Shown piece by piece: positions 2,734 to 56,719 of a DNA stretch of 61,487 bases. Location of the stretch: contig JBAYKO010000004.1 in the NCBI GenBank assembly GCA_041664605.1, positions 1-61,487 on the forward strand. Direction: 5' to 3'. A program made the translations under genes and the position numbers. This DNA comes from Minisyncoccota bacterium. GTDB taxonomy: Bacteria; Patescibacteriota; Minisyncoccia; Phycocordibacterales; UBA9973. The notes beneath the pieces are model-generated. The model was not told the origin of the DNA, did no database searches, and worked only from the letters and a program-made list of their open reading frames with translations. The number at the start of each line of letters is the position of its first letter. The first letter of the stretch is position 1.

Positions 2734-2782
2734 TTGACAAAAGCTTTAAATAATGTAAAATGGAGCTAGAATAAGTAAATTT
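2734..2782 (+). promoter_or_regulatory. sigma70-type promoter with AGAA leader motif
   Basis: TTGACA-16-TAAAAT followed by ggaGCTAGAATAAGTAAATTT. Confidence 0.7.
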
Positions 2783-2795
2783 AAAACAGCCCAAA

Positions 2796-3404
2796 ATGAA
2801 AAAGTTAGTTGTAATTTTAATACTATTAGTTAGCACTAATTCACTAAATGCCCAATGGGGCAATCTGACAGACAGTCTACGGACTGCTTATCAAAAAGAA
2901 ACCCATAAACTTGTGATCAAAATTGTTGACACCTTTGAAGTTAAATACTATTACCCTGCAATGGCATTAGATACCAGTTTTGCTACGGATACTTCTTTGA
3001 CTAATGATAGTATTTTTGGATTCTGTCGGGCAACAAGTGAGGAAAACACCTCAAAAAAAAGTGTGGAGATATCACTTTTAACTGTCCCCGGCTATACGGC
3101 CGACCTAACTAAGGCAGTTATAAAAGCCAAACAATTAGGATATAGACCTGCCACTATTGAAGAACTGCTTTTGATAAAAGACAAAGATTTATTATCTGTA
3201 GATAAAAATATGGAAATAATCTTAGCCCCAATGTCGGGAGCAGCAAAAATTAGTAATGAGGAAGAAGATAGAGGGCAAACAATCTACGGGATCCTATGTT
3301 TAAAACTGAATCCCGCCACAAAGAAGTTTTATGTCGATATTAAGGAAGGATGCGGATTTTACATCTTTCCTGAAGTCGCCATATGTGTAGTGAAAGAGTT
3401 GTGA
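2796..3404 (+). CDS. Secreted hypothetical protein
   Basis: Signal peptide MKKLVVILILLVSTNSLNA|Q, a GYRPATIEELL motif, and its own promoter and terminator. Confidence 0.7.
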   Translation: MKKLVVILILLVSTNSLNAQWGNLTDSLRTAYQKETHKLVIKIVDTFEVKYYYPAMALDTSFATDTSLTNDSIFGFCRATSEENTSKKSVEISLLTVPGYTADLTKAVIKAKQLGYRPATIEELLLIKDKDLLSVDKNMEIILAPMSGAAKISNEEEDRGQTIYGILCLKLNPATKKFYVDIKEGCGFYIFPEVAICVVKEL

Positions 3405-3423
3405 GCGATGACACACTCTTTCC

Positions 3424-3449
3424 AAAAACCCGGAGCAATCCGGGTTTTC
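3424..3449 (+). terminator. Intrinsic terminator
   Basis: aaaaacccgga-gcaa-tccgggtttt directly after the stop codon. Confidence 0.8.
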
Positions 3450-3455
3450 TATTTT

Positions 3456-3589
3456 CCCCCACACCCACTTTGTCATTGCTTTTTATTCTGCTAATAAAAT
3501 TTGTTAACCAATCCTATTTCTTGAGAATAATTTTAATAAAAATAGTTTTATATTGAAAAAGCAGAATAATGACAAAGTGGGTGTGGGGG
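3456..3589. repeat. MITE/REP-like element with perfect 22-bp terminal inverted repeats
   Basis: cccccacacccactttgtcatt (3456-3477) and aatgacaaagtgggtgtggggg (3568-3589), plus an inner tattctgct/agcagaata pair. Confidence 0.8.
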
Positions 3590-3594
3590 TTTTT

Positions 3595-3630
3595 AACTAT
3601 TCTACAATTCTATAGAATTGTAGAATAGTT
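3595..3630. repeat. Perfect 36-bp palindrome
   Basis: aactattctacaattcta|tagaattgtagaatagtt, immediately beyond the recO stop. Confidence 0.85.
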
Positions 3631-3631
3631 T

Positions 3632-4216
3632 TTATAGCTGGGTTTCTTGTAGAGATTTATTTATTTCTAAAATTAAACTTCTTTTTTTTAATTCTACCTC
3701 TTCTATTAAATTTTTATTTATTAGAGAATCAACAAAAACAGATGAACCATTTTTATTATCTAAATATCCTAAATAAAAAAGTGTTTTTAAAACGAGAATT
3801 ATCTCTAATCCCCCCAATTCCTTTTCATTTAAATTTTCTTTTTCTAAAAAATTAAACCCTTCGATTAATTTTTCAAAAAGTTCTTCATTTTTTTCTTCTC
3901 CATGGCAAAGTCTTTTTAGTAATTTAAATATTTTAGCGACGAGTAAAAATTTCTTTTCATCTTTTACTAAATTTTCTAATAAAACCAATTTCTCGGCATT
4001 AGTAATACGCCAAAAATCTTTCCCTCTAACTATATCAATTTTAGAATAGGAAAAATCTTGAAGACTAAACTTTAGTTTGGAGGATGTTTTTCTAATACCT
4101 TGAGCAAAGACGCTTATCATCCCAAAATCACGAGTGAATATATTTATGAATTTATTAGCTTCGCCAAGATTGTTACCTGAGACTATAAATCCCTCTGTAT
4201 GGTAAATATGATGCAT
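3632..4216 (-). CDS. recO: DNA repair protein RecO
   Basis: N-terminal OB-fold pattern TEGFIV...GEANKFINIFTRDFGMISVFAQGIRK..SKLKFSLQ. Confidence 0.85.
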   Translation of the reverse strand: MHHIYHTEGFIVSGNNLGEANKFINIFTRDFGMISVFAQGIRKTSSKLKFSLQDFSYSKIDIVRGKDFWRITNAEKLVLLENLVKDEKKFLLVAKIFKLLKRLCHGEEKNEELFEKLIEGFNFLEKENLNEKELGGLEIILVLKTLFYLGYLDNKNGSSVFVDSLINKNLIEEVELKKRSLILEINKSLQETQL

Positions 4217-4221
4217 GATGA

Positions 4222-4250
4222 ATTAGGTTATAGGTTTTAGGGAATAGGTT
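4222..4250 (-). repeat. Period-7 array before the recO start
   Basis: Minus strand aacctat tccctaa aacctat aacctaa t, then tcatc ATG. Confidence 0.7.
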
Positions 4251-4261
4251 AAAGTAGAAAA

Positions 4262-7200
4262 TTAATTTTTTTTGATACTAATCTTAAATTCTAGATTATC
4301 AATTTTTACCTCCCTAAACGCTTCTTTAGAAGCGTCGGGCGATCCAGCTTCACTGGATTTAGCTTGCCCATCTGGTATACTTTCGAATTTTATTTCATTT
4401 ATAAAAGCTGATTTTTTAAGAGATTGTTCAAATTTTTGAATTAAATCTTTTCCATTTTCTGTTTCAATAAATAAAACAATAGTGTCTCCTGTTGTTAAGT
4501 TTTCTTTCTTTCTTAATTCCTGAACTTCACGGAAAAATTCACGATACAGTCCTTCTTGTTTTAGTTCTTCTGTAATTTCTGTGTCCAAAACTAAATCATT
4601 TTCTATTTTGTCATCCAAAACAACTTCTTTAACATTCATCTCATCTTTAATTAATTCTAAATATCCATTTGATAACTTTCCGTTTTCCATTTTTAACTTA
4701 AGCGAAGCGAGTGGCTGTTTAACTTTTATTCCAGCTTTTGTTCTAACATCAAGACCTTGAGAAACAATTTCTCTTGTCTTTTGCATATCTTCTATTGTTT
4801 TTTCATTTATTTCCCCTGCCTTTGACCAATCCTCTAAATGCACACTTTCTTTTCCATCAGTGCCCTTCACTTTTTGATAAATTTCTTCAGCAATAAATGG
4901 AGTAAGTGGAGCCATTAATTTTGAAAGTTCAAGTAAAATAAATTTAGTTGTAGCCATGGCGGAGTTTTTATCCTTTTCGTCACCACCTTTAAATCTATCG
5001 CGAGAACGACGAATATACCATTGAGAAAAATCTAAGATAAAATCTCTGGTATTTCTAGATGGTTCAAGTAAATGATAAGTATCTAGGTGCACTGTTGTGT
5101 CCTTAAGAAGTTTATTAAATTTTGTAATTATCCATTTATCTAAAACATTTTCTGATTTTAAAGCTAATCCTAAATCAACATCTTCGCTTGGAAACATTTC
5201 ATAAAACTTCACGATGTTGTTTAAAATGTTAAAAGTTTTTTTAACTACTTCGTCGACAGTTTTTTCATCGAAATTTTTTGAATCCCCTGCTTGGTTGACA
5301 CTATACATCCAAAATCTTAAAGCATCAACTCCATATTTATCCATCATTATCCATGGGTCAACAACGTTGCCGATATGTTTAGACATTTTTTTACCTTTTT
5401 CGTCGAGTAAATGACCAAGACAAATAACGTTTTTATAAGCTTTACCTTTTCCAACTAAAACTCCTATCGCATGGAGTGTATAAAACCAACCACGAGTCTG
5501 GTCTATGGCTTCAGAAATAAAATCTGCTGGATACCCACCTCCGTCAATCCACTCTTTGTTCTCAAATGGATAATGGTCTTGTGCAAATGGCATGGCTCCT
5601 GAATCGAACCAAACATCTAAAACTTCTTTTTCTCGAATCATTTTTCCTCCACAAGAAGAACAGAGGATTTCAAAATCATCGATATATGGTTTATGAATAT
5701 CTAATTCAAAATCATCATTGTGTGGAATTGGAATAAAATTATATTCTTGAAAATCCCCAAAACTGACAATTTCTTCTTGCCAATTTTTCCAAGTTGTCAG
5801 AGCGTCATCTCCATTTAAAATTGATGGTAAAAGTTCAAAAGCGATTCCGTGAGAAACAAATAAAATATTTTCATTTTGAAATTTTCTATCTATGTCATAA
5901 AGAAATTCTGAAATACGCTTTTTTGCGTCATAACAAGATTCGCCACCTTTTGGTGCTGTGAAAAAATCTTCTTTTTCTTTTTGCCACTTATTAAATTCTG
6001 ATTTTGGTTTTCCATTAAATTCTCCAAAATTATATTCATGTAATCTTTCATCAATGATTATTTGATCTTCTGGAAAACCAATAATACTAGCAACAATTTT
6101 TGCTGTTTCTTTTGTCCTTACAAATGGAGAAATAATTATTTTGGTAATATTTTTTTCCTTCAATTTTTCTGCCATTTCCTTAACATGAGCTATTCCATTT
6201 TCAGTTAAATGATGAGGAAAATCAGCAACACCACTACATACATTTAAAACATTGTGCTCCCCTTGCCCGTGTCTCATCCCAAAATATTTATTCCCTGATT
6301 TTTTTGTTCTTTGTTTTAAATCATCCACACTGCCAAGAACCTCCATTTTTTTACACTTCTCACAATTCCAAACAGGAAGTGGTGTTCCCCAATATCTCTC
6401 ACGGGAAATTGCCCAATCCTTTATGTCTCTTAACCATTCACCAAATCTTCCATCTTTAATATATTCTGGTTCCCAATTTATTCCTTCATTCTCTTTTACT
6501 AATTTATCACGAAGTTCTGTCATTCTGATATACCAGGAATCACGGGCATAATAAATTAAAGCTGTGTGGCAACGCCAACAGTGTGGATATGAGTGTTCAT
6601 ATTTTTCTTTTTTAAACAATAAGTTTCTTGAAGCTAAATCTTTTATTACATCAACCGCAACATCTTCATCTCTGACAAATCTTCCTTCCAAAAAACCAGT
6701 TCCAGTTAAAAATTTTCCATCAAGACCAACTAGGTGATGTTTTGGTAATCCTATTTTTGTTCCTAGTTCAAAATCATCTTGTCCATACATCACAGCTGTG
6801 TGCACAACACCGGTTCCATCTTCTGTAGTTACAAAATTTGCCGGATAAATCTTATAAGCTTTATTTAATTTTTCTTTTTCTGGACCAGAAATTGTCTCAT
6901 TTAAAAAATGATATAATGGTTCATATTCCAAACCTAAATTTATAAGGTCTTTACCCTTTATTTCTTCAATAATTTTGTATTCACCATCAATTACAGAAAG
7001 TCTTGCTTTTGCAAGAATAAAAAATTCCCCACTAATTTCAATTTTTACATAATCAATATTTTCTCCAACAGCAAGTGTAATGTTCCCCGGCAAAGTCCAT
7101 GGAGTCGTTGTCCAAGCTAAAATATATTCATTTTCTTTTCCTTTAATCTTAAATTTCACATAAACGGAAAGATCTTTTACATTTTCATAACCTTGAGCAA

Positions 7201-7777
7201 GTTCATGAGAAGAAAGTCCCGTACCACAACGTGGACACCACGGAACAATTTTGTAATCTTTGAAGAGTAAATTTTGATCATTAACTTTTTTTATAACAGC
7301 CCAAACAGATTCCATAAAAGATGCCTTATAAGTAATGTATGGATTTTCTTGGTCCAACCAAAATCCCATGCGGGTAGTAAACTCATTCCATTCAGTTAAA
7401 TATTTCCAAACACTTTCTTTACATTTTTTATTAAATTCGGCTATCCCATAATCTTCAATTTCTTTTTTTGATTTTAAACCAAGTTCTTTTTCTACTTGAA
7501 GTTCAACAGGAAGCCCGTGGGTATCCCAGCCAGCTTTTCTTCTAACATGAAAACCTTGCATTGTTTTATAACGAGGAAGAACATCCTTGAAGGCTCGAGC
7601 CTCAAAGTGGTGAATTCCTGGGTGACCATTTGCAGTTGGGGGACCTTCAAAGAAAACAAACTCTCCTTTTGGAGATTTCTTTTCTAGGCTTTTTTCGAAA
7701 ATTTTATTTTCTTGCCAAAACTTAAGAATTTTCTCTTCGTTTAAAGCAAGTTCTGATTTACCTACGTTTTCATCCAT
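4262..7777 (-). CDS. ileS: Isoleucyl-tRNA synthetase, type 2, with GXHH signature and an inserted histidine phosphatase domain
   Basis: GPPTANGHPGIHH, GWDTHGLPVE, WTTTPWTLPGN, DWAISRERYWGTPLP, DQTRGWFY, KMSKH. Insert RHGQGEHN...SPFVRT...LHE...SHG. Confidence 0.97.
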   Translation of the reverse strand: MDENVGKSELALNEEKILKFWQENKIFEKSLEKKSPKGEFVFFEGPPTANGHPGIHHFEARAFKDVLPRYKTMQGFHVRRKAGWDTHGLPVELQVEKELGLKSKKEIEDYGIAEFNKKCKESVWKYLTEWNEFTTRMGFWLDQENPYITYKASFMESVWAVIKKVNDQNLLFKDYKIVPWCPRCGTGLSSHELAQGYENVKDLSVYVKFKIKGKENEYILAWTTTPWTLPGNITLAVGENIDYVKIEISGEFFILAKARLSVIDGEYKIIEEIKGKDLINLGLEYEPLYHFLNETISGPEKEKLNKAYKIYPANFVTTEDGTGVVHTAVMYGQDDFELGTKIGLPKHHLVGLDGKFLTGTGFLEGRFVRDEDVAVDVIKDLASRNLLFKKEKYEHSYPHCWRCHTALIYYARDSWYIRMTELRDKLVKENEGINWEPEYIKDGRFGEWLRDIKDWAISRERYWGTPLPVWNCEKCKKMEVLGSVDDLKQRTKKSGNKYFGMRHGQGEHNVLNVCSGVADFPHHLTENGIAHVKEMAEKLKEKNITKIIISPFVRTKETAKIVASIIGFPEDQIIIDERLHEYNFGEFNGKPKSEFNKWQKEKEDFFTAPKGGESCYDAKKRISEFLYDIDRKFQNENILFVSHGIAFELLPSILNGDDALTTWKNWQEEIVSFGDFQEYNFIPIPHNDDFELDIHKPYIDDFEILCSSCGGKMIREKEVLDVWFDSGAMPFAQDHYPFENKEWIDGGGYPADFISEAIDQTRGWFYTLHAIGVLVGKGKAYKNVICLGHLLDEKGKKMSKHIGNVVDPWIMMDKYGVDALRFWMYSVNQAGDSKNFDEKTVDEVVKKTFNILNNIVKFYEMFPSEDVDLGLALKSENVLDKWIITKFNKLLKDTTVHLDTYHLLEPSRNTRDFILDFSQWYIRRSRDRFKGGDEKDKNSAMATTKFILLELSKLMAPLTPFIAEEIYQKVKGTDGKESVHLEDWSKAGEINEKTIEDMQKTREIVSQGLDVRTKAGIKVKQPLASLKLKMENGKLSNGYLELIKDEMNVKEVVLDDKIENDLVLDTEITEELKQEGLYREFFREVQELRKKENLTTGDTIVLFIETENGKDLIQKFEQSLKKSAFINEIKFESIPDGQAKSSEAGSPDASKEAFREVKIDNLEFKISIKKN
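4319..4357. repeat. Two-hairpin element inserted in frame near the ileS 3' end
   Basis: cgcttct-tt-agaagcg and tccag-cttca-ctgga; encodes part of SSEAGSPDASKEA; locally GC-rich. Confidence 0.65.
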
Positions 7778-7814: not shown

Positions 7815-7834
7815 AATGGCCCCGAAATGGGGCC
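7815..7834 (-). terminator. Hairpin terminator of paralog cassette 1
   Basis: ggcccc-gaaat-ggggcc with an A run on the plus strand (U-tract on the minus strand). Confidence 0.7.
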
Positions 7835-7852
7835 TGAAAAAGATAAATATTT

Positions 7853-8215
7853 TTAAAGATTTTTTTTTGGAATTATTTTCTTGAAATCAACATTGTCGAA
7901 GAGTTCATATATCTCCTCTTCTGAATAGCCTTTTTTCACTAGTTGATTCACTAATGCCCAGTAAAATACAAAAACTCTTCTTAGATCAATATTTGAAAGA
8001 AGTGTTGGAACCATACTAGGCACAAAACCAATTTTTCGTTTTAATTTTTTTGTGGGTTTTTCTGGATTAGTACTTTTGGAGATTAATTCAACAACAGCAG
8101 AAATAAAGCTTGGTGATTTAAGTTGTTTTTCTATTTCCTGAAAAGAGTTATCTTTTTCCCTTAACTCTTTTATTATTTCGTATATAAATATGAATGAAAA
8201 AAATATATTTTTCAT
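7853..8215 (-). CDS. Hypothetical protein, tandem paralog 1 of 3
   Basis: Shares MKN...F..I..II.EL and IDL...F......L.KK.YS...I..L.D..DF..IIP with the next two ORFs. Confidence 0.8.
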   Translation of the reverse strand: MKNIFFSFIFIYEIIKELREKDNSFQEIEKQLKSPSFISAVVELISKSTNPEKPTKKLKRKIGFVPSMVPTLLSNIDLRRVFVFYWALVNQLVKKGYSEEEIYELFDNVDFKKIIPKKNL

Positions 8216-8230
8216 AAGAACTTTTTTATT

Positions 8231-8271
8231 ATTTCTGACAAGACACTAACAAAAAACAAAGATTTTGTCAA
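8231..8271 (-). promoter_or_regulatory. sigma70 promoter, cassette 1
   Basis: TTGACA-17-TAGTGT, then cttGTCAGAAAT. Confidence 0.75.
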
Positions 8272-8273
8272 AT

Positions 8274-8304
8274 AAAAAAATGACCCCGCGGTGGGGTCAT
8301 TTTT
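8274..8304 (-). terminator. Terminator of cassette 2
   Basis: aaaaaaatgacccc-gcggt-ggggtcattttt. Confidence 0.8.
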
Positions 8305-8322
8305 ATGAAACTATACAAGGAA

Positions 8323-8706
8323 TCACCTGGGTAATCTTTTAGGGATAATCGAAGAGAAATCTTCAATGTCAAGCAATTTCCAGATATAATCATCTGAATA
8401 ATTTTTTGTCTTTTTTAGCACTCCAAAAATAGAGTTTAGAAAGAAAAAAGCGTTGGCAAGATCAATTCCGTACAGATTATCAAAGTCTACACTAGCAACA
8501 CTTTTGCGAGAATTATGTCTTCTGACTGATTCTTCTTTTTCATTATTACCATTAATAGTAATAAGGAGTGAGACATCACTAATGAATCTTTTGTCTGTCA
8601 GTAAACGAGGATTAATTACAGATTTTTTTATTTCTCTTTTTTGAAGTTCCTTGATTATTCCATTAAGAAAAATGAGTGCAAAAAATACATCTTTTTTATT
8701 CTTCAT
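8323..8706 (-). CDS. Hypothetical protein, tandem paralog 2 of 3
   Basis: ...GIDLANAFFFLNSIFGVLKKTKNYSDDYIWKLLDIEDFSSIIPKR. Confidence 0.8.
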   Translation of the reverse strand: MKNKKDVFFALIFLNGIIKELQKREIKKSVINPRLLTDKRFISDVSLLITINGNNEKEESVRRHNSRKSVASVDFDNLYGIDLANAFFFLNSIFGVLKKTKNYSDDYIWKLLDIEDFSSIIPKRLPR

Positions 8707-8721
8707 AAGGTACCGATTTAG

Positions 8722-8764
8722 TTATTTCTGACTAGACATTAACAAAAGGTAGTAAATTTGTCAA
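8722..8764 (-). promoter_or_regulatory. sigma70 promoter, cassette 2
   Basis: TTGACA-17-TAATGT, then ctaGTCAGAAATAA. Confidence 0.75.
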
Positions 8765-8778
8765 ATATAAAAATCAAC

Positions 8779-8808
8779 AAAAAATGGCCCTGTTTGTGGA
8801 CCATTTTT
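8779..8808 (-). terminator. Terminator of cassette 3
   Basis: aaaaaatggccc-tgtttgt-ggaccattttt (imperfect). Confidence 0.6.
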
Positions 8809-8824
8809 GAGAATGAAATAATAA

Positions 8825-9223
8825 TTATTCATCGGTAACAAAAACTGATAAGTCATCAGGAATGATTGATGAGAAATCATCAATATCCATTAATTTACAA
8901 ATATAATCATCCTTATAACTTTTCTTCTTTAATACTGATATTACATCATAAAGAAATTTGAAGGCATATTGGAAATTAACCCCATCAAAAGCGTTGAAGC
9001 AAGCTGGGAAGCAACTTTTATCAAAATTATTAATTTTTTTGATTTTTTCTTTTGACTTTTGATTCCAATCTCTGGAAGATATCATATCTGCTACAGCCAT
9101 ATAAAATGTTTCGTCCGTTGTGGACAAAAAAAGTTTATGGATTTCTTCAATTTTTTTACCTCTAATTTTAAGCTCTCTTATAACTCGAGCCAGAAAAGCG
9201 AAACCTAATACCATATTTTTCAT
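8825..9223 (-). CDS. Hypothetical protein, tandem paralog 3 of 3 (start revised from 9331 to 9223)
   Basis: MKNMVLGFAFLARVIREL aligns with the paralog starts. The longer ORF would run through its own promoter and the argS terminator. Confidence 0.8.
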   Translation of the reverse strand: MKNMVLGFAFLARVIRELKIRGKKIEEIHKLFLSTTDETFYMAVADMISSRDWNQKSKEKIKKINNFDKSCFPACFNAFDGVNFQYAFKFLYDVISVLKKKSYKDDYICKLMDIDDFSSIIPDDLSVFVTDE

Positions 9224-9240
9224 AAGAACTAATTTAAGAA

Positions 9241-9280
9241 TTTCTAACAAAATCTTACAAAAAGAGATGTGTTTTGTCAA
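9241..9280 (-). promoter_or_regulatory. sigma70 promoter, cassette 3
   Basis: TTGACA-17-TAAGAT, then tttGTTAGAAA. Confidence 0.75.
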
Positions 9281-11086: not shown

Positions 11087-11164
11087 TTATTTTCCTTTAT
11101 TTTAACATATTATTTTGATTTTTTCTTTAGATTAGTCCACACACTTAGAACTTAGTGTGCAGGA

Positions 11165-11212
11165 TTGACAAATTTTCAAAAAAATGTAATCTGTAGTCAG
11201 AATAAGTAAATT
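11165..11212 (+). promoter_or_regulatory. sigma70 promoter with AGAA leader motif (thyA)
   Basis: TTGACA-16-TAATCT, then gtaGTCAGAATAAGTAAATT. Confidence 0.75.
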
Positions 11213-11224
11213 AACATATTTAAT

Positions 11225-12148
11225 ATGAAACCAAATTACAAGTATTTATGGAACAGAACCCCTGACAAACAATACAAAAATCTCTTATTGGAAATATTGA
11301 ATGAAGGAGAAAAAGATGATGCACAATCTGGGGTACCAACAATTTCTCGGATTGCCCCAGTATCAATGCGATTTAAATTTGAAAATGGATTCCCTTTAAT
11401 TACAGAAAGAAACATGAACCCAAAAACATCAGAAAGTCTTCCTATAACAGTGTGGCAACAAGCTATTGCTGAAATCTGTGCTTTTATAAATGGAGCAAGA
11501 ACCTTAAAAGAATTTGAAGATTATGGCTGTTATTGGTGGAAAGATTTTTTAACAGAAAAAAAGTGCACAAAAAGAGGACTGGAACCAGGTGATAATGGGC
11601 CAGGATCCTATGGTGCCGCCTTTCATGATTTTCCGATGCCTGACGGAGAAACGTTTAATCAATTTGAGTTTATTATCCGTCAAATATTAGAAAATCCAAT
11701 ATTAAAAACTCATTTTATTTCTCCATGGATTCCTTATTACACTTTCAGAGTAACTGGGCATAAACAAAAAGTTGTTGTTTGTCCATGTCATGGTTGGATT
11801 TTTATTCGAATCATGAATAACAAATTAACACTGAATATGATCCAAAGATCAGGAGATGTACCAATTGGTGTTCCATCAAATATGTGCCAGTACGCTGCGC
11901 TCACAATGATGATTGCCCAAGTAACAAAAACTGTTCCATATGAATATGTGCACAGTTTTATGGATGCACACATTTATGAAAATCAAATTCCTGCCGTAAA
12001 GACAATACTAAGCAGAGAAGACCGTATTTTTCCAATAGTAGAGATGGATGATTCTATTACAAACCTTTTCGATTTCAGAAAAGAGCACTTTGTTCTTAAG
12101 GAATACAATCCCCATCCAGGGATAAAAGGAATACCTGTAACAATATAA
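11225..12148 (+). CDS. thyA: Thymidylate synthase (ThyA type, divergent)
   Basis: GPGSYGA, catalytic CPCH, QRSGDVPIGVPSN, DAHIYENQ, C-terminal YNPHPGIK. Confidence 0.9.
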   Translation: MKPNYKYLWNRTPDKQYKNLLLEILNEGEKDDAQSGVPTISRIAPVSMRFKFENGFPLITERNMNPKTSESLPITVWQQAIAEICAFINGARTLKEFEDYGCYWWKDFLTEKKCTKRGLEPGDNGPGSYGAAFHDFPMPDGETFNQFEFIIRQILENPILKTHFISPWIPYYTFRVTGHKQKVVVCPCHGWIFIRIMNNKLTLNMIQRSGDVPIGVPSNMCQYAALTMMIAQVTKTVPYEYVHSFMDAHIYENQIPAVKTILSREDRIFPIVEMDDSITNLFDFRKEHFVLKEYNPHPGIKGIPVTI

Positions 12149-12161
12149 AGGAGGTGCTGAT

Positions 12162-12629
12162 ATGAAAAAACAAGTTAATATTGATTATACTAGATTTGAT
12201 GACCAAAAAAAAGTTATGGAACAAATCATCAAGGATGGCGCTTGTCCTTTCTGTGTTGATATTGAAAAATTCAACAAAAATGAAATCGGGGTTTATCACA
12301 AAAAACCAATTTTTAAGAATGGAAAATATTGGTTGGTAACCACTAATCAATGGCCTTACCAAAATTCAAAAATTTCCTTACTCCTTATTTATAAATTTCA
12401 CGCAGAAAAAATGAGTGAAATAAAAGAAGGAGCTGGAGAAGAATTTTTTGAAATGCTCAAATGGATTGAAAAAAATTTCAATCATACTAATTGTGGTGGT
12501 GCTTTTACTACTAGAATTGGAGTTCCTAAAAAATCTGGGGCTACTGTAAAACATCTTCACACTCAATATGTGATGATTTCTAAAAAAGGTTTCAAAATTA
12601 AATTTAGTGTTAAACCAATAGAAAAATAG
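12162..12629 (+). CDS. HIT-superfamily nucleotide hydrolase/transferase (HxHxQ type)
   Basis: CPFC, NQWPY, GATVKHLHTQ; strong SD AAGGAGGTG upstream. Confidence 0.8.
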   Translation: MKKQVNIDYTRFDDQKKVMEQIIKDGACPFCVDIEKFNKNEIGVYHKKPIFKNGKYWLVTTNQWPYQNSKISLLLIYKFHAEKMSEIKEGAGEEFFEMLKWIEKNFNHTNCGGAFTTRIGVPKKSGATVKHLHTQYVMISKKGFKIKFSVKPIEK

Positions 12630-12658
12630 AAAAACCCGGCGATTCGCCGGGTTTTTTA
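12630..12658. terminator. Bidirectional terminator
   Basis: aaaaacccggcga-t-tcgccgggtttttt between convergent genes. Confidence 0.85.
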
Positions 12659-12659
12659 A

Positions 12660-13508
12660 TTAAAAACTCATATCTACAAATATTGTTTCTATTTCATACT
12701 TTTTCAGAATATCCTCACCATCTAAAACTCCATACCCTTCAGAATAAAAGAGTTTTTTAATACCCGATTCTGCAATTAAGTACGTGCAAGGACCACATGG
12801 AAATGTAGAAACATAAATACTTGCACCATTCGTAGAAATTCCATTCTTCGCAGCACTAGCAATAACTCCAGCTTCTGAATGTATAAAACTTGAAAGTTCT
12901 ATATGAATCCCTTTTTTGAAATTATTACGAGGATCACAAAACAAATGAGGAGCATGAGATGAAAGAAGGTGATGATTAAAAGTAATAATAGCGATTTCTT
13001 TTTCTTTTACTAAAACAGACCCTATGTGTCTCCAGATATCGCTACTTTTTTCAGCATGTTCTAATCCAAAACTAATCATTCTGCGATCAAAATCGTCACG
13101 AGAAATTTTTATATCAGGTGAAAGATCTTGTTGTTTGAGTGAATAATCCCTATCATGTCTTAAGAAAAAATCTTTTTCAAAAACAACATTTTTCCCTGAT
13201 AAATATTCCTCTGCAATAGCTATCATTTCCTCTTCTTTTGGAAAAATGATTTCAGAAAAAGAATCAAAATTAGTTAAAGTTGTGAAAAAATTTTCTTCAA
13301 CAACTTCTATTCTCTTGAAAATTTTCAAACTAGAAATCATTGCTTTAATAAGGAATGGATCAATAGCGTTGATATTCTTACCTAATGGACGAAACTTTTG
13401 TGAAAAAGAGCTTCCTAAAATCCCCAGGAATTCGATACCAAAATGTTTTTTAAATAAATTTATATAACTTTGGTGAATCCCGGCCACATAAACAAACATC
13501 GCTTTCAT
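12660..13508 (-). CDS. dCMP deaminase-family protein with N-terminal extension
   Basis: HSEAGVIA and FPCGPC zinc deaminase motifs, GASIYVSTFPC. Confidence 0.85.
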   Translation of the reverse strand: MKAMFVYVAGIHQSYINLFKKHFGIEFLGILGSSFSQKFRPLGKNINAIDPFLIKAMISSLKIFKRIEVVEENFFTTLTNFDSFSEIIFPKEEEMIAIAEEYLSGKNVVFEKDFFLRHDRDYSLKQQDLSPDIKISRDDFDRRMISFGLEHAEKSSDIWRHIGSVLVKEKEIAIITFNHHLLSSHAPHLFCDPRNNFKKGIHIELSSFIHSEAGVIASAAKNGISTNGASIYVSTFPCGPCTYLIAESGIKKLFYSEGYGVLDGEDILKKYEIETIFVDMSF

Positions 13509-14089
13509 TTTGGCACCTCTCCTTCTTTTTTTGTTCCCATCTCATTTGCAAAAAAATTTTCTACATACTCATTTAGGCCAGGGATTAATTTTTGACGTAT
13601 ATCCTTTACCAAATTCATGACCATTAGTCTTATTTTATTACTCGTATGAGTTGTTGCTTGTGGTTCAAGAACCTTAACCTCCCCACAAAATTCTTTCAAT
13701 TTTTCAAGATCCTCATTAGAATAAGTTTCCTGTGTTGCAATTAAAACATCTGGTTTGACTATTTTAATCATCTCCCATTTTGGAGCTTCTTCTTTTAAAA
13801 CAACAAGGCCAACATGCCTAATACGACTGATTGTGTCCATTCTTTCATCTTGTGGAATAATAGGACGAGTATCACCCTTTTTCTTTTTTATTTTGGCATC
13901 GTTGTCGACACCAACAATAAGGTAATCTGCTTGTTCTGAAGCTCTTTCAATATATTTTCCATGCCCAGGATGAAAGATATTCCAAGACCCCATTGTTAAA
14001 ACAATCGTCTGTCCCAACATTCTTTGGCACTTTACGACTGAGTTTAATTCTTCTAATGTTGTTACGATTGGCGCATTTCTTGATTTCAT
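13505..14089 (-). CDS. Cytidylyltransferase-family protein (RfaE/TagD-like)
   Basis: GSWNIFHPGH (HxGH), LIVGVDND, RPIIPQDER, TSNKI. Confidence 0.85.
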   Translation of the reverse strand: MKSRNAPIVTTLEELNSVVKCQRMLGQTIVLTMGSWNIFHPGHGKYIERASEQADYLIVGVDNDAKIKKKKGDTRPIIPQDERMDTISRIRHVGLVVLKEEAPKWEMIKIVKPDVLIATQETYSNEDLEKLKEFCGEVKVLEPQATTHTSNKIRLMVMNLVKDIRQKLIPGLNEYVENFFANEMGTKKEGEVPK

Positions 14090-14095
14090 AATTGT

Positions 14096-14145
14096 AAATT
14101 TGCTTGTTTCTGCCTTAACCTTACCATAAGAATTTTAAATTGCAA
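14096..14145 (-). promoter_or_regulatory. sigma70 promoter with AGAA leader motif
   Basis: TTGCAA-16-TAAGGT, then taaGGCAGAAACAAGCAAATTT. Confidence 0.7.
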
Positions 14146-14207: not shown

Positions 14208-14277
14208 CTAGAACCTAGCCCCTAGAATCTAGAATCTAGAATCTAGAATCTAGAATCTAGAAGCTAGAAGCTAGCCC
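14208..14277 (+). repeat. Ten-unit CTAG heptamer tandem array overlapping the rplK stop
   Basis: ctagaac ctagccc (ctagaat)x5 (ctagaag)x2 ctagccc. Confidence 0.95.
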
Positions 14278-15686: not shown

Positions 15687-15860
15687 AATTTTATTATATT
15701 TATTTTCCTTACTAAAAAACCCCCACAGGGCTATATAAATACTACTTTTTTTTAAGCAAAAAGTCAACCTAACACACTTATTTTATTGTTTTTCTGTTTT
15801 TAATATAATAAGAATCAAAAAATAAAATTTCATTCATAAATAAAGTAAATATATAGGTCA

Positions 15861-15901
15861 ACTATCGAAAAACTCCCCAAATGGGGGAGTTTTTCGATAG
15901 T
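15861..15901 (-). terminator. Terminator
   Basis: actatcgaaaaactcccc-aaatg-ggggagtttttcgatagt. Confidence 0.8.
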
Positions 15902-17834: not shown

Positions 17835-17843
17835 GTTGTTTAT

Positions 17844-18004
17844 TATAACAACAAACGAGGAGCAAAACAAAAACTTGTTTTTATTTTGTCCGAGTGTCGT
17901 TGTTATATAGATTTTTAATCTATATAACAACAAGAGAGGAGCGAGGCAAAAAGCTATTTTTGCTTTGTCCGAACGCCGTTGTTATATGATTTTTATATAA
18001 CAAC
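17844..18004. repeat. Tandem about 65-bp elements with TATAACAAC terminal inverted repeats (two full units plus a partial third)
   Basis: tataacaac...gaggagc...ttttgtccga...cgttgttata occurs at 17844 and at about 17922; junctions form palindromes. Confidence 0.75.
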
Positions 18005-18024: not shown

Positions 18025-18094
18025 ATCCAGTAGTGAGACTTGGCGAGGTGTAAAGCACAACTCTAAAGAGCATTTTAAAGCTCTACTATTGGAT
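18025..18094. repeat. GTAGTGA/CTACTAC family element, copy 2
   Basis: atccagtagtgagactt...taaagctctactattggat; shares agtgagactt and taaag.tctacta with 37084-37122. Confidence 0.7.
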
Positions 18095-18154
18095 TGACAG
18101 GAAATACTAATGGAGTACCATTAAATTAGATCGTTTTCTTAATATAAATACTAT

Positions 18155-18373
18155 ATGACAGCCACAACTTTAATACTTATTATGATAAGTTTAACTAGGT
18201 GGGTTGTCAAAAAGAACCCATTTATTAACATCGAACCCTACTGTTGGGGTATTGTGAAAATAGAATTCATTGGAAAAATTAAAGAGATATTTTTCTCTAA
18301 AAAATTTTTTATTCCAATAATTATGATCCCTGCCACTATTACCAAAAGAACAGACATTATATTAAGACAATAA
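18155..18373 (+). CDS. Possible small hypothetical protein (uncertain)
   Basis: ORF followed by a hairpin at about 18372-18395. No recognisable motif; competing short ORFs exist on the minus strand. Confidence 0.25.
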   Translation: MTATTLILIMISLTRWVVKKNPFINIEPYCWGIVKIEFIGKIKEIFFSKKFFIPIIMIPATITKRTDIILRQ

Positions 18374-19903: not shown

Positions 19904-19933
19904 TCGCTCATTTTAACATAATCTAAAATATAT

Positions 19934-21375: not shown

Positions 21376-21410
21376 ATTAAAACTATACCAAAAATTATGG
21401 TTTTGGTCAT

Positions 21411-21460
21411 TTGCTATTTTTTAAAAAAGTGCTAAATTGAAGGCAGAAATAGTACTAAAT
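21411..21460 (+). promoter_or_regulatory. sigma70 promoter with AGAA leader motif
   Basis: TTGCTA-16-TAAATT, then gaaGGCAGAAATAG. Confidence 0.65.
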
Positions 21461-21468
21461 ATATTCAT

Positions 21469-22005
21469 ATGGCAAAAATTGAAGTAAAAGGAAATTTTGA
21501 TCTTCCTAATCTTATTAATTATCCTGCTTTTAGAGAGCATGGTGCTTATATCCACGCATTTAAGTTATGGTACAACATAACTCAAGAGTACGATGAGGAA
21601 CTTCTTAAATTGAATAGAACTGCTACCCTTTTGGAATTATGTTCTAAAAATGGCAATGATCTTATCAAGACAATACAGGAAGTATGCGAGCATGATCCAG
21701 AGTTAAGAAATAGAATTGCCCAAATAGGTGACATAGAGCATGGAAAGTTCTTTAATGGCATAAAGATTGGCGACACTTTGGTCGACTACACTATCTGTAA
21801 AAAATGTGGGTTCGAACACCATTTCAAAAGATTCCCCTGGGTAAATTGTCAGCACTGTGGTTGTAAACAAATGAATCACATTCACACTGACCCATATCCT
21901 GATGAAGTTATGACTGATAAATTCGAAATACAAATTTATGAATGTAAGGAGTGCCATAAAAGAATTGAGGCAGAATTCTTAAAAGGAAAAGTGATGTCAG
22001 TTTAA
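21469..22005 (+). CDS. Hypothetical protein with C-terminal zinc-ribbon motifs
   Basis: CKKC, CQHC and CKEC pairs; own promoter and terminator. Confidence 0.7.
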   Translation: MAKIEVKGNFDLPNLINYPAFREHGAYIHAFKLWYNITQEYDEELLKLNRTATLLELCSKNGNDLIKTIQEVCEHDPELRNRIAQIGDIEHGKFFNGIKIGDTLVDYTICKKCGFEHHFKRFPWVNCQHCGCKQMNHIHTDPYPDEVMTDKFEIQIYECKECHKRIEAEFLKGKVMSV

Positions 22006-22029
22006 AAAACCCCCCGAATAGGGGGTTTT
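22005..22029. terminator. Bidirectional terminator
   Basis: aaaaaaccccc-cgaata-gggggtttt. Confidence 0.8.
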
Positions 22030-22082
22030 GGTTTTTAATTTATTCCTGACATTTACATTTTGCAAAATGTTTAAATGTCACT

Positions 22083-27323: not shown

Positions 27324-27358
27324 ATGGTAGGTTATAGGTTAGAGTTTATAGGTTTTAG
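27324..27358 (-). repeat. Period-7 array before the helicase start
   Basis: ctaaaac ctataaa ctctaac ctataac ctaccat aATG. Confidence 0.75.
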
Positions 27359-37737: not shown

Positions 37738-37779
37738 TGATTAGGTTATAGGTTATAGGTTATAGGGTATAGGTTATAG
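37738..37779 (-). repeat. Period-7 array before the dedA-like start
   Basis: ctataac ctatacc ctataac ctataac ctataac ctaatca aATG. Confidence 0.9.
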
Positions 37780-42476: not shown

Positions 42477-42511
42477 GAATTAGGTTCTAGTTTCTAGTAG
42501 CTAGGTTCTAG
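42477..42511 (-). repeat. Period-7 CTAG array before the ATPase start
   Basis: ctagaac ctagcta ctagaaa ctagaac ctaattc aaATG. Confidence 0.85.
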
Positions 42512-42522
42512 TCTTTAATAGA

Positions 42523-45643: not shown

Positions 45644-45644
45644 A

Positions 45645-46477: not shown

Positions 46478-46542
46478 ACTGGTACATTTTTGCAAGTATA
46501 ATATACTTAGCTTAGAAGTTCATTAAAAACAAGGAGGATATT

Positions 46543-54048: not shown

Positions 54049-54059
54049 AATAATTTTTT

Positions 54060-54383: not shown

Positions 54384-54414
54384 TGGCGGAGGTAAGACTA
54401 AATTATTTATAATG

Positions 54415-55477: not shown

Positions 55478-55493
55478 CTAAATTTTTTAATTT

Positions 55494-55520
55494 CAAAAAA
55501 TCCGCATTTGCGGGTTTTTT
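55494..55520 (+). terminator. Terminator
   Basis: aaaaaatccgc-attt-gcgggtttttt. Confidence 0.75.
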
Positions 55521-55558
55521 GTATAGCCTTTTAAATTAATATTTGTTAAAATCTAGAC

Positions 55559-56032
55559 ATGAATGAAAAGAAAATATTTGAATGGAATTCTTATGAATTC
55601 ATTCATAAAGAAAAAAAGGTTGATTGGTATTGGGCATTAGGAATAATCGCCATATCGGGAACTATTATTTCAATAATTTATAAAAATTATATTTTTGCAA
55701 TTTTTATAGTTCTGGCTTCTACAGCTCTCGCCTTTTTTGGATCAAAACCACCTGAAATAATAACAATCAAAATAGATAGGAAAGGAATAAAAATACAAGA
55801 CTTGCTTTATTCATATAAAAACATAAAATCATTTTGGGTAAATAAAAGTGAAGACAAATTGATTCTTGATTCAAGTAGAGCTTTTATGCCAATAATGGTT
55901 ATACCAACCAAAGATATTAATGGTGTTGAAATTGAAGAAGACGAATTAAGAGATTTTCTTTTGCAGTTTTTAAAGGAAGAAGAAACAAAAGAACCAATGT
56001 CCCAAAAATTTATGGATTATTTGGGATTTTAA
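55559..56032 (+). CDS. CPR-type two-TM protein with a PH-like cytoplasmic domain
   Basis: EW...E..HKEK..DWYW, two TM helices, Y..IKSFWV, ending ..DYLGF. Confidence 0.75.
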   Translation: MNEKKIFEWNSYEFIHKEKKVDWYWALGIIAISGTIISIIYKNYIFAIFIVLASTALAFFGSKPPEIITIKIDRKGIKIQDLLYSYKNIKSFWVNKSEDKLILDSSRAFMPIMVIPTKDINGVEIEEDELRDFLLQFLKEEETKEPMSQKFMDYLGF

Positions 56033-56116
56033 ATAAGTGGATTTTTAAATATAAAACTGTTAATCTGATAAAGATAACAGTTTTATTTTTAATATATTAA
56101 ATTAATAATATAAAAT

Positions 56117-56183
56117 GCCCTCATAGTTCAAAGCCGACGCAAAAGTCGGCTCTCCGACGCAATAGTCGTCGGAGCGGATAGAA
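56117..56183 (+). pseudogene. tRNA-Arg 5' fragment with a 43-nt D-loop insertion, truncated by the GIY-YIG gene
   Basis: GCCCTCATAGTTCAA-[insert 56132-56174]-CGGATAGAA; 24-bp direct repeat with 56449-56472. Confidence 0.85.
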
Positions 56184-56184
56184 T

Positions 56185-56454
56185 ATGAATAACCAACTAT
56201 GTGTTTATATTTTAAAAAATAAATCCAACAAATATTATGTTGGTAGTACAGACAATCTAGATCGTAGATTACATCAGCACAAAATGGGATATACTCAAAC
56301 AACTCGAAACATGAAATCTTTTCAATTAGTTTTAAAACAAGATTATTCTTCTTTAGAAATGGCAAGAAAAATAGAGAGAAAAATTAAAAAATTAAAAAGA
56401 AAAGATTATATTGAAAAAATGATTAAAGAAGGTTATATTAAATTGGTTATATAA
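56185..56454 (+). CDS. Small stand-alone GIY-YIG nuclease
   Basis: CVYILKN...YYVGSTDNLDRRLHQH...ARKIERKIKK.K. Confidence 0.92.
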   Translation: MNNQLCVYILKNKSNKYYVGSTDNLDRRLHQHKMGYTQTTRNMKSFQLVLKQDYSSLEMARKIERKIKKLKRKDYIEKMIKEGYIKLVI

Positions 56455-56457
56455 AAT

Positions 56458-56532
56458 GCCCTCATAGTTCAACGGATAGAACGTAACTTTGCGGAAGTTA
56501 TGATCCAGGTTCGATTCCTGGTGAGGGCACCA
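56458..56532 (+). tRNA. tRNA-Arg(GCG)
   Basis: GCCCTCA/TGAGGGC-A-CCA, TAACT-TTGCGGA-AGTTA, CCAGG-TTCGATT-CCTGG. Confidence 0.93.
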
Positions 56533-56535
56533 TAA

Positions 56536-56644
56536 ATAGTTCAAAGCCGACGCAACAGTCGGCTCTCCGACACCATGGTCGTCGGAGTGGATAGAACGTA
56601 ACTTTGCGGAAGTTATGATGTAGGTTCGATTCCTACCGAGAGGA
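56536..56644 (+). pseudogene. tRNA-Arg(GCG)-like remnant lacking the 5' acceptor strand, with a 43-nt D-loop insertion
   Basis: ATAGTTCAA-[insert 56545-56587]-TGGATAGAAC, identical anticodon arm, different T arm and 3' end CGAGAGG with no pairing partner. Confidence 0.8.
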
Positions 56645-56671
56645 CAATAATGTAATGATATCATCAGTATC

Positions 56672-56719
56672 TTTACAATGAAATCACAATATGGTAGATT
56701 GAGCACAGAAAAGCAAATT
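56672..56719 (+). promoter_or_regulatory. sigma70 promoter with AGAA leader motif
   Basis: TTTACA-17-TAGATT, then gagCACAGAAAAGCAAATT. Confidence 0.65.

Follow-up and report, generated by a model that had tools for sequence, protein, structure and literature searches.

A promoter class with AGAA at a fixed distance from the -10 hexamer, associated with accessory genes in a Minisyncoccota genome

The start element of bacterial promoters, Y-1 R+1 Y+2 or, in Terrabacteria, YRR, is centered 7–8 bp after the -10 hexamer and is reported to set the transcription start site and to raise promoter strength; the same study describes purine (AG)-rich initial transcribed regions in Firmicutes and Thermotoga (Kuo et al. 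2025, NAR; PMC12641261). In early sigma-A promoter families of low-GC Gram-positive bacteria and phages, TTGACA and a TRTG-extended -10 are combined with a +1 AGAAAGGAGG. We compared with these systems a window of 61,487 nucleotides (contig JBAYKO010000004.1, assembly GCA_041664605.1) from an uncultured Minisyncoccota bacterium of groundwater, in which an earlier note had listed eight promoters with a -35, a 16–17 nt spacer, a -10, and AGAA from the seventh base after it. This architecture holds at all eight sites, each read on its own strand, with a TAnnnT -10 followed by exactly 6 nt and AGAA; the sites had been located correctly, but the coordinates were displaced from the A of AGAA by about 3 nt, in the 5' direction on the plus strand and into the leader on the minus strand. 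The class consensus begins with TTGACA(AA) and a 16–17 bp spacer, often with terminal TG; the TAnnnT -10 that follows is weak, and the discriminator, 6 nt long, has G at -3 and C/T at -1. As in the published start element, a pyrimidine-purine-purine triplet, here C/T-A-G, is centered 7 bp after the -10, and YRR is the form over-represented in Terrabacteria. Unlike that element, which is degenerate and 3 bp long, AGAA comprises four nearly invariant bases within one promoter class, G at -3 is favored too, and the start sites are predicted from sequence.

The first promoter with its leader (2734..2795, plus strand) consists of TTGACA (2734–2739), 16 nt, TAAAAT (2756–2761), ggagct, and AGAATAAGTAAATT from 2768, with a leader of 28 nt. 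The unit behind it (2796..3448) comprises a gene for a secreted-looking 202-aa orphan (2796–3404), for which only 2 distant homologs were found among 1.84e9 representatives, and an intrinsic terminator (3425–3448), and is inserted between RecO and a 644-aa gene that are adjacent in relatives. The next three units (7818..9223, minus strand) are tandem paralogous orphans of 132, 127, and 120 aa (8825–9223, 8323–8706, and 7853–8215), each with its own terminator (8808–8780, 8304–8276, and 7834–7818), that fill a variable slot between ArgRS and IleRS and have no homolog in 5.8e9 proteins. Their promoters, all with TTGACA and a 17-nt spacer, are those of the 132-aa gene (9224..9280; TTGACA 9280–9275, TAAGAT, tttgtt, AGAAATTCTTAAATT from 9245, leader 22 nt), the 127-aa gene (8707..8764; TTGACA 8764–8759, TAATGT, ctagtc, AGAAATAACTAAAT from 8729, leader 23 nt), and the 120-aa gene (8216..8271; TTGACA 8271–8266, TAGTGT, cttgtc, AGAAATAAT from 8236, leader 21 nt).

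Two units encode enzymes of nucleotide metabolism. On the plus strand, TTGACA (11165–11170), 16 nt, TAATCT, gtagtc, and AGAATAAGTAAATT from 11199 (promoter and leader 11165..11224, leader 26 nt) precede a unit (11225..12656) made up of thyA (11225–12148), a familyless 155-aa gene (12162–12629) with GGAGG just upstream, and a bidirectional terminator (12630–12656). This terminator, read as 12656–12630, is shared with the facing unit (12630..14089, minus strand), which encodes a cytidylyltransferase-like protein (13505–14089) and a dCMP-deaminase-like protein (12660–13508) behind TTGCAA (14145–14140), 16 nt, TAAGGT, taaggc, and AGAAACAAGCAAATT from 14111 (14090..14145, leader 22 nt). The remaining two units, both on the plus strand, are a Cys-rich 178-aa orphan (21469–22005; unit 21469..22037, terminator about 22006–22037) behind TTTGCT (21410–21415), 17 nt, TAAATT, gaaggc, and AGAAATAGTACTAAAT from 21445 (21410..21468, leader 24 nt), and a 166-aa orphan (56733–57233; unit 56733..57288, terminator about 57255–57288) behind TTTACA (56672–56677), 17 nt, TAGATT, gagcac, and AGAAAAGCAAATT from 56707 (56672..56732, leader 26 nt). 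Terminators are thus present behind all units, as had been noted, and no relatedness of the orphans to one another was found. Two more exact copies of the promoter lie just outside the window, upstream of 140- and 119-aa orphans; both have the non-consensus -10 TATTCT.

The window contains the string TTGACA-N16/17-TAnnnT-N6-AGAA 5 times; 100 dinucleotide shuffles gave 0.00. In the 75.4 kb that we sampled from this one genome, TTGACA-N16/17-TAnnnT occurs at 10 sites, 7 of which have AGAA at offset 6 (binomial P of about 4e-13) and 9 of which have AG there, the lone exception being intragenic. Among intergenic exact-TTGACA sites with a protein-coding gene downstream, AGAA is present in 7/7. The sites at 8236, 8729, and 9245 are not independent, as they lie upstream of tandem paralogs with 31–39% protein identity; after collapsing them, P is 2e-9. 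The 4-mer AGAA is frequent in this sequence (about 1% of positions), and the -10 register could have been moved by one base when the list was drawn up, so that the pattern might be put down to chance or to A/T-rich composition combined with hand-picked registers. We rejected this reading, to which we give next to no probability, given the shuffles, the binomial P, an AGAA peak among promoter-like sites that is confined to offset 6, and the two copies in sequence that had not been seen when the pattern was proposed. Over the whole window, AAGYAAATT, the extension of the motif in some leaders, shows no over-representation, with 10 matches against 8.85 expected.

The three paralog promoters retain TTGACAAA, the T-A...T of the -10, and GT(C/T)AGAAAT, although the proteins are only 31–39% identical, and this preservation of AGAAAT through deep divergence indicates that it is under selection. 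When the consensus positions are disregarded, most promoter pairs are no more alike than background (mean identity 0.37, with 0.32 expected), so that the class is defined by functional positions and not by overall homology. These values argue against the possibility that a single promoter-leader cassette of about 60 bp was copied before unrelated genes, or that genes were replaced behind a retained promoter, with AGAA simply inherited. One pair behaves differently: the promoters at 2768 and 11199 are identical at 38/49 positions (78%), their 63% identity at non-consensus positions equals that of the truly homologous paralog promoters (54–68%), the genes downstream are non-homologous, and common descent of this one pair is likely. 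The TATTCT shared by the two sites outside the window points the same way. Such reuse is documented: putative mobile promoters have been described (Matus-Garcia, Nijveen and van Passel 2012; PMC3575422), for which an identity of 80% or more was required over 50 nt or more in the region from -150 to -50 relative to the start codon, and the pair at 2768 and 11199 resembles them as similar promoters before non-homologous genes of one genome. It stays just under the published threshold, however, most class members share functional positions only, neither flanking repeats nor mobile-element genes were seen, and the AGAAAT of the paralogs was kept despite their divergence. As an account of the whole class, reuse therefore seems to us unlikely.

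We estimate at roughly 0.6 the probability that the sites form a -35-dependent class of canonical sigma-70/sigma-A promoters and that AGAA represents the transcription start with the first transcribed bases. The leaderless genes of the window are informative in this respect: the A of their ATG is the seventh base after the -10, the same distance as that of AGAA. In 7/70 genes, the ATG follows a strong -10 hexamer after exactly 6 nt (background, about 0.7 per offset); in the leaderless class, too, the start is therefore the seventh base after the -10. RNA polymerase would begin at the A in the seventh position after the -10, and C/T-A-G would act as the start element, fixing the choice of start site and strengthening it. 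The transcript would open with purines and continue into an A/U-rich, unstructured leader of 21–28 nt that has no Shine-Dalgarno sequence, and its first AUG would presumably be translated. With a promoter and an intrinsic terminator each, the units would form compact, probably strong, autonomous expression cassettes. Among the options that the earlier note had left side by side, an initiator element is thus the best supported, through the leaderless ATG distance, the published Y-1 R+1 R+2 (PMC12641261), and the unrelated low-GC and phage families.

As the note had described, four leaders continue with (T/C)AAG(T/C)AAATT, namely, as TAAGTAAATT (2768 and 11199), CAAGCAAATT (14111), and AAGCAAATT (56707), and 4/10 copies of AAGYAAATT in the window sit 5–7 nt after the predicted start, a position that is non-random. 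This placement, the 14-nt exact identity that links the 202-aa orphan with thyA, and the presence of pyrimidine-deoxynucleotide genes in 2/4 units could be taken to mean that a dedicated trans-acting factor binds AGAA(A)YAAGYAAATT at +1 to +15 and co-regulates the cytidylyltransferase/dCMP-deaminase operon, thyA, and some of the orphans; the site would be either a DNA operator that overlaps the start or a target in the 5'-UTR for an RNA-binding protein or small RNA. We consider such a regulon doubtful. The leader contains no dyad or clear repeat symmetry (AATTTACTTATTCT is, by direct reading, the reverse complement of AGAATAAGTAAATT), no stable, conserved, or shared RNA structure and no Rfam match were found in the leaders, the leader is missing at thyA of 55 other Patescibacteria and of the nearest relatives, the remaining six class members have only AGAA and loosely A/T-rich sequence, and no candidate regulator was identified. 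With no conserved structure, Rfam match, or dyad, and no conservation of the motif in relatives, a dedicated translation leader, which had been proposed along with the regulon, is likewise not supported. The 14-nt identity of AGAATAAGTAAATT between two unrelated genes and the AAGYAAATT of four leaders exceed what start-site selection needs.

In lambdoid phages and Escherichia coli, -10-like elements of initially transcribed regions are established sites of sigma-dependent pausing. By analogy, a -10-like (T/C)AAATT at about +9 to +15, some 21 bp after the true -10, might re-engage sigma and make the polymerase pause as the short leader emerges. Hexamers (T/C)AAAT(T/C) at +8 to +15 in 6/10 leaders are compatible with such a pause, as is a direct repeat read in 2768 and 11199, with GTAAAAT/GTAATCT at the -10 and GTAAATT at +8. 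TAnnnT-like hexamers are, however, common in sequence of 30% GC, their position varies, and the hexamer is absent from 8236, the clearest member of the T-tract subfamily; we regard this explanation as very improbable.

The sites had been described as accessory-gene promoters, and this assignment is borne out. The class is found mainly on lineage-specific orphans and two nucleotide-metabolism operons, occurs preferentially on genes that belong to no Pfam family (Fisher P = 0.005; 0.02 with paralogs collapsed), and is lacking in relatives; three of the units are located at breaks in gene order that is conserved in relatives, namely, the 202-aa gene, the paralog trio, and, outside the window, the 140-aa gene. 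Core genes of conserved order mostly have -10-only promoters, and several are leaderless. These leaderless or -10-only (extended -10) core promoters of Patescibacteria, in the window and in its relatives, share with the AGAA class the polymerase and a distance of 7 from the -10 to the start, the +1 A of the leaderless ones being the A of ATG; in contrast, the AGAA class combines a consensus -35 with a weak -10 and a leader of 21–28 nt. This architecture is distinct, belongs to a minority of promoters, and is linked to accessory genes. The pattern is real but is an ordinary kind of promoter feature and not a new system; what is specific to this genome is a promoter class, -35-dependent, leadered, and terminator-bounded, on inserted orphans.

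Phage morons are autonomous insertions of promoter, gene, and terminator. The present units resemble them as single genes or small operons with their own promoter and intrinsic terminator, three of which separate genes that in relatives are neighbors or less far apart. They could thus be moron-like cassettes imported from a phage or mobile element with such a promoter consensus, and very similar promoter arrays before small ORFs on phage contigs, along with the gene-order breaks, agree with this origin. The GC3 of the driven genes is raised, at 0.245 (similar to L11, NusG, and SecE) against 0.187 for the rest (P = 0.001); this is the only hint of foreign origin, and high expression would account for it equally well. 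Unlike morons, the units lie outside any prophage, scattered singly and not in an island, with no integrase found nearby. The orphans gave no matches to phage families or phage genomes and are almost without homologs anywhere, the full motif had 0 matches in 2.9 million viral contigs, and the leaders, unlike the phage examples, have no Shine-Dalgarno sequence. A common donor, which the note had also suggested, is disfavored by these results and by the mutual unrelatedness of the orphans, and we find it quite improbable.

The promoter type itself recurs elsewhere. Phage and low-GC (Firmicutes-like) contigs carry arrays of near-identical TTGACAaa..TGnTATAAT/TATACT-N6-AGAAA or AGTAA promoters, each upstream of a small ORF, and other, non-ascertained promoters on these contigs again show the AGAA peak at offset 6. 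A sample of about 150 promoter-like sites, drawn from Patescibacteria other than this one and from further phyla, showed no such peak. Compared to these arrays, which lead into strong Shine-Dalgarno sequences, have -10 hexamers near consensus, and on phages are clustered, the present promoters have leaders without a Shine-Dalgarno sequence and weak -10 hexamers (TAATCT, TAGTGT, and TATTCT), and are scattered singly in a Patescibacteria chromosome. The conservation of AGAA in the class is stricter than a 3-bp start element and base composition predict.

Three further sites in the window are related to the class to different degrees. Upstream of the radical SAM gene (46480..46542, plus strand), AGAAG lies 6 nt after TATACT; the spacing and the poor -35 noted for this site (46514) are as described, but membership is ambiguous, with a better TATAAT further upstream and a GGAGG Shine-Dalgarno sequence in the leader. 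Besides the eight listed sites, a related -35 promoter upstream of a 72-aa ORF (18094..18154, plus strand; TTGACA, 16 nt, TACCAT, taaatt, AGATCG) has A-G at the class position, but not AGAA. In the related secE-nusG promoter (15687..15767, minus strand; TTGACT, 17 nt, TAGTAT, ttatat, AGCCC), bases seven and eight after the -10 are likewise A-G.

Eight promoters in the window, each read on its own strand, consist of a -35 element, a spacer of 16-17 nt, a TAnnnT -10 hexamer, exactly six further bases, and AGAA, as the earlier note had proposed. Named by the first A of AGAA, these sites are 2768 (upstream of a 202-aa orphan), 11199 (thyA), 21445 (178-aa orphan), and 56707 (166-aa orphan) on the forward strand and 8236, 8729, and 9245 (a tandem trio of paralogues of 120, 127, and 132 aa) and 14111 (an operon with cytidylyltransferase-like and dCMP-deaminase-like genes) on the reverse strand. 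The survey covered 75.4 kb of the organism, namely, the window with 9.35 kb to its left (locus L020) and 4.56 kb to its right (locus L023); the left extension contains two further exact copies, before orphans of 140 and 119 aa, for ten class members. The -35 elements are near consensus, usually TTGACAAA, with exact TTGACA in five of the eight window sites and a match at 4-5 of 6 positions in the other three. The -10 elements are weak (3-5 of 6 positions against TATAAT), with T-12, A-11, and T-7 present in 10 of 10 members, and at most of the ten sites TG lies one or two bases 5' of the hexamer. Class sites are intergenic, co-oriented with the downstream gene, and 21-28 nt from its ATG; a preceding terminator directly adjoins most of them, and an intrinsic terminator closes every unit. 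The site at the radical SAM gene (46514), which had been listed as fitting the spacing with a poor -35, proved ambiguous, its leader carrying a Shine-Dalgarno sequence, and was excluded from the class.

A chance-level or hand-picked pattern was rejected, the observation being real and statistically strong. The full motif, TTGACA-N16/17-TAnnnT-N6-AGAA, is not equally frequent at random, occurring 5 times in the window compared to 0.00 in 100 shuffles, and among 76 promoter-like sites of the window with a good -35, AGAA lies at offset 6 in six and at any other offset in three at most. The shorter pattern TTGACA-N16/17-TAnnnT has ten matches in the 75.4 kb, seven of which have AGAA at offset 6; two of the remaining three, one preceding the 72-aa ORF at 18155 and the other an RNA-like region of L020, have AG at this offset, and the single match lacking AG is intragenic. 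Sites 8236, 8729, and 9245 are not independent because all head tandem paralogues, and the AGAA statistics hold after the paralogues are collapsed into one. Scanning with a position-weight matrix for degenerate -35 elements added no member to the known ten.

The canonical transcription start lies at the seventh base past the -10 hexamer, and the first A of AGAA occupies this position at all sites. With the predicted start numbered +1, the base preceding AGAA (-1) is always C or T, +1 is A, and +2 is G in 10 of 10 members, with G favored at -3; the same Y-A-G triplet is present in the promoters of secE, the 72-aa ORF, and the ncRNA-like region. In addition, the distance from the end of a strong -10 hexamer to the ATG is exactly 6 nt for 7 of 70 window genes, compared to about 0.7 at each other offset, which points to a leaderless class whose transcripts begin with the A of ATG, equally far from the -10. 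The best reading of these sequence features is that AGAA comprises the transcription start and first transcribed bases of complete sigma-A promoters, which form a lineage-specific class. Kuo et al. (2025) described a "start" element (Y-1 R+1 Y+2, with a YRR form in Terrabacteria) centered 7-8 bp past the -10, which sets the start position and makes the promoter stronger, and found the initial transcribed regions of Firmicutes and Thermotoga to be AG-rich (PMC12641261). The C/T-A-G triplet of the AGAA class fits the YRR form, in position as well as in sequence. Known start-site rules account for AGAA, with no new mechanism involved.

The leaders are 21-28 nt long, 80% A+U, and lack a Shine-Dalgarno sequence, with no GGAGG-like element at a distance of 5-12 nt from the start codon in any of the ten. 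Long-range Shine-Dalgarno pairing of AGAAA with the 16S 3' tail was considered and rejected because AGAAA lies 17-24 nt from the start codon; such pairing is also disfavored by the canonical GGAGG sites present elsewhere in the window, where Shine-Dalgarno elements precede the genes at 12162, 13508, and 46543. A riboswitch or attenuator leader was likewise rejected, the Rfam matches in the window being tRNAs only and no stable conserved fold being apparent; the folding energy of eight of the ten leaders is no better than that of shuffled sequences.

In four leaders, AGAA is followed by (Y)AAGYAAATT, in agreement with the earlier note; this long form is carried by thyA and the dCMP-deaminase operon, a possible functional link, but also by two orphans without an assigned function. 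The AAGYAAATT string is not over-represented in the whole window (10 matches against 8.85 expected), and 4 of the 10 copies sit 5-7 nt past a predicted start. Its presence in the four leaders could be explained by common descent or by a role in the leader, as an operator, or in a sigma-dependent pause. Direct reading of AGAATAAGTAAATT against its reverse complement AATTTACTTATTCT revealed no dyad or repeat symmetry typical of an operator, and a CodY-like box was rejected because the half-box resemblance is confined to one site. The leader motif is absent at thyA in 55 other Patescibacteria loci and at the genes of the three nearest relatives. We consider it improbable that AGAA(A)YAAGYAAATT is a genuine cis-regulatory element defining a lineage-specific regulon, combined with two-tier expression in the lineage. 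Under that reading, the element might act as a start-site operator or as a 5'-end RNA element of mRNAs without a Shine-Dalgarno sequence, and the putative regulon might join pyrimidine-deoxynucleotide genes to orphans in an uncultured Paceibacteria-type organism. The two tiers might comprise leaderless core genes with -10-only promoters as opposed to -35-dependent, leader-carrying accessory genes; if so, the two sets could be switched independently.

Core genes, in contrast, mostly have promoters of the -10-only type, 6-10 nt before the ATG, or leaders consisting of 7-nt tandem repeats. In many core genes, a strong, often TG-extended -10 ends 6 nt before the ATG with no -35, and this fixed distance implies that their mRNAs would be leaderless; examples are found at 2582-2617 (-), 19904-19935 (-), 17835-17860 (-), 55525-55558 (+), and 57970-57999 (+), and in loci L026-L105 and L186-L188 of relatives. 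Similar leaderless-type promoters precede thyA and many other genes of other Patescibacteria. Promoters of this phylum are little known, and our full-text search on leaderless transcription in Patescibacteria or the Candidate Phyla Radiation found no paper treating the subject directly. Here, one genome presents two architectures, the -10-only, often leaderless core promoter versus a full -35/-10/start/leader cassette found at lineage-specific orphans together with a small number of nucleotide-metabolism genes.

The AGAA class forms autonomous and probably strongly expressed cassettes, mainly for accessory genes. The first gene lacks a Pfam family in 8 of the 10 AGAA units versus 13 of 44 other units (Fisher P = 0.005; 0.02 with paralogues collapsed). 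The family of the paralogue trio has no homologue among 5.8 billion proteins, the 202-aa protein has two distant homologues among 1.84 billion representatives, and searches of Pfam, PHROGs, NCBIfam, and PDB sequences yielded nothing useful on orphan function. Genes behind -35-type promoters (2796-3404, 7853-9223, 11225-14089, 21469-22005, and 56733-57233, and also 18155-18373) have a mean GC3 of 0.245 versus 0.187 for the others (P = 0.001), near that of L11, NusG, and SecE; with values equal to those of these three genes, high expression and foreign origin are equally possible. If confirmed, the cassettes would predict start sites and highly expressed accessory genes in metagenome-assembled genomes and would provide a natural strong promoter-leader module for such organisms.

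The three nearest syntenic relatives, obtained by exact-protein look-up, encode IleRS 63-66% identical to that of the window. The gene order shared with them runs from nucleotide genes through ArgRS, a variable slot, IleRS, RecO, and a 644-aa gene to a class II aminoacyl-tRNA synthetase (probably ProRS), peptidase M16, and an AI-2E transporter, and the breaks in this order hold the 202-aa orphan, the paralogue trio, and the 140-aa orphan. The AGAA class was not found in these relatives, where leaderless promoters precede even their own orphans, and about 150 promoter-like sites of other lineages show no AGAA peak at offset 6.

The paralogue promoters retain TTGACAAA, the T-A...T of the -10, and GT(C/T)AGAAAT, although the proteins have diverged to 31-39% identity, which argues for selection on these positions. 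In most promoter pairs, identity outside the consensus positions is at background (mean 0.37 compared to 0.32 expected), so the class is defined by function rather than by overall homology. The promoters of the 202-aa orphan and thyA are identical at 38 of 49 positions (78%; 63% at non-consensus positions), as similar as truly homologous paralogue promoters, and hence likely share common descent. The published definition of putative mobile promoters requires upstream regions to share at least 80% identity across 50 nt or more (PMC3575422); apart from the tandem trio, the genes downstream of our sites are non-paralogous, as in that case, but the best non-paralogous pair, orphan and thyA, narrowly misses the threshold, and the other pairs are near background. 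Diverged paralogy of all the orphans was rejected since, apart from the tandem trio, the driven genes have no mutual similarity.

The units resemble phage morons in having their own promoter and terminator but do not lie in a prophage, their neighbors being housekeeping genes. A phage origin of the gene set, raised in the earlier note, was not borne out by searches of three orphans against phage genomes, which gave no match, and the orphans belong to no PHROG family (one marginal match, of the 120-aa paralogue to a family of unknown function, E = 0.0034). For the window as a whole, a phage origin was rejected because a near-identity search of phage genomes was empty and the genes are cellular housekeeping ones.

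We also scanned metagenome and viral contigs for TTGACAAA..TAnnnT-N5-Y-AGAA. Most of the matches listed resemble genuine low-GC promoters, with TGnTATAAT followed by AGAAAGGAGG..ATG, and come mainly from unrelated low-GC organisms or phages; some phage contigs among them carry arrays of near-identical promoters of this kind before small ORFs. The matches listed contributed no additional sequence from this organism. Other, non-ascertained promoters on their contigs also have an AGAA peak at offset 6 (15 of 103 promoters in the metagenome loci and 23 of 357 in the viral loci), so position-fixed AGAA recurs in strong sigma-A promoters and is not specific to this genome. The full motif had 12 scattered, chance-level matches in a collection of 185,579 species genomes that does not include this organism, and no match in viral contigs.

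The window has a G+C content of 30% and encodes IleRS, ArgRS, thyA, L11, NusG, SecE, S20, RuvA, type IV pilus genes, and six tRNAs among its housekeeping content. Exact-protein look-up placed the window on groundwater metagenome contigs, and among public RNA runs none was found to contain the organism. Searches for close relatives with ArgRS, thyA, and IleRS reached identities of only about 64-67%; for thyA and IleRS, this is the upper limit against any other sequence, the best matches being from Patescibacteria or Paceibacteria genomes. The IleRS (4262-7777, minus strand) contains an inserted histidine-phosphatase domain (His_Phos_1, residues 501-658); this fusion is present in all 120 best homologues listed, from Paceibacteria-type genomes, which makes it a clade-wide feature. 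When a footprint of strain variation was sought, the promoters were 100% identical across all public copies. Two contigs that split the window in one metagenome overlap in 136 nt alone (46533-46668), in the divergent promoter region ahead of the radical SAM gene, and the last ~200 nt of the window (61274-61487) differ at 11 positions from another assembly, coinciding with a contig end; both may be assembly joins or strain-variable points.

Several other elements were observed nearby. Arrays of 7-nt tandem repeats, which have 3-9 copies and few G residues on the mRNA strand, include TAGGTTA on the forward strand, that is, AACCTAT on the gene strand (4224-4251, 27328-27358, and 37742-37779), CTAGAAA/CTAGAAC (42481-42512, 57888-57925, and 59730-59760), ATACTTA (58738-58769), and 7-9 copies of CTAGAAT (14208-14274), the last located after L11 and not before a gene. 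Most of these arrays, for which we know of no described function, directly precede core-gene start codons (RecO, PIF1 helicase, VTT-domain protein, ABC ATPase, S20/RuvA, and Fpg). In a relative (locus L186), TAATTAG repeats precede RecO and five copies of AATTAAG precede the class II aminoacyl-tRNA synthetase, probably ProRS, so the position seems to be conserved and the repeat unit not.

In L020 (19665-20200), ~7.1-7.6 kb beyond window position 1 and on the minus strand in window orientation, TTGACA-16-TATACT with AG at the seventh base precedes a G+C-richer region of ~500 nt that has no ORF longer than 48 aa and ends in a terminator. The region folds far better than shuffles (z = -6.0) and matches no Rfam family, tRNA, or tmRNA; located between TatD and the 119-aa orphan that precedes S6, it is a candidate for a structured non-coding RNA. 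In the secE-nusG promoter (AGCCCTGTGGGGGTTTTTT), a short G+C-rich hairpin with a T-run (15718-15732, minus strand) starts at the predicted +1. This hairpin is a possible leader attenuator, distinct from the strong terminator at 15861-15901 that belongs to the upstream gene. Just 5' of the thyA -35, in the region separating thyA from the divergent ArgRS gene, the element CACAC-ACTTAG-A-ACTTAG-TGTG (11100-11165) combines a direct repeat with short inverted arms on its flanks and may be a protein-binding site. Finally, two tandem duplications of ~80% identity were detected, one of 79 nt x1.9 upstream of a DUF1003 gene (17844-17995) and one of 77 nt x2.2 upstream of a SpoU methylase gene (60566-60733), the latter abutting a tRNA gene (60722-60794).
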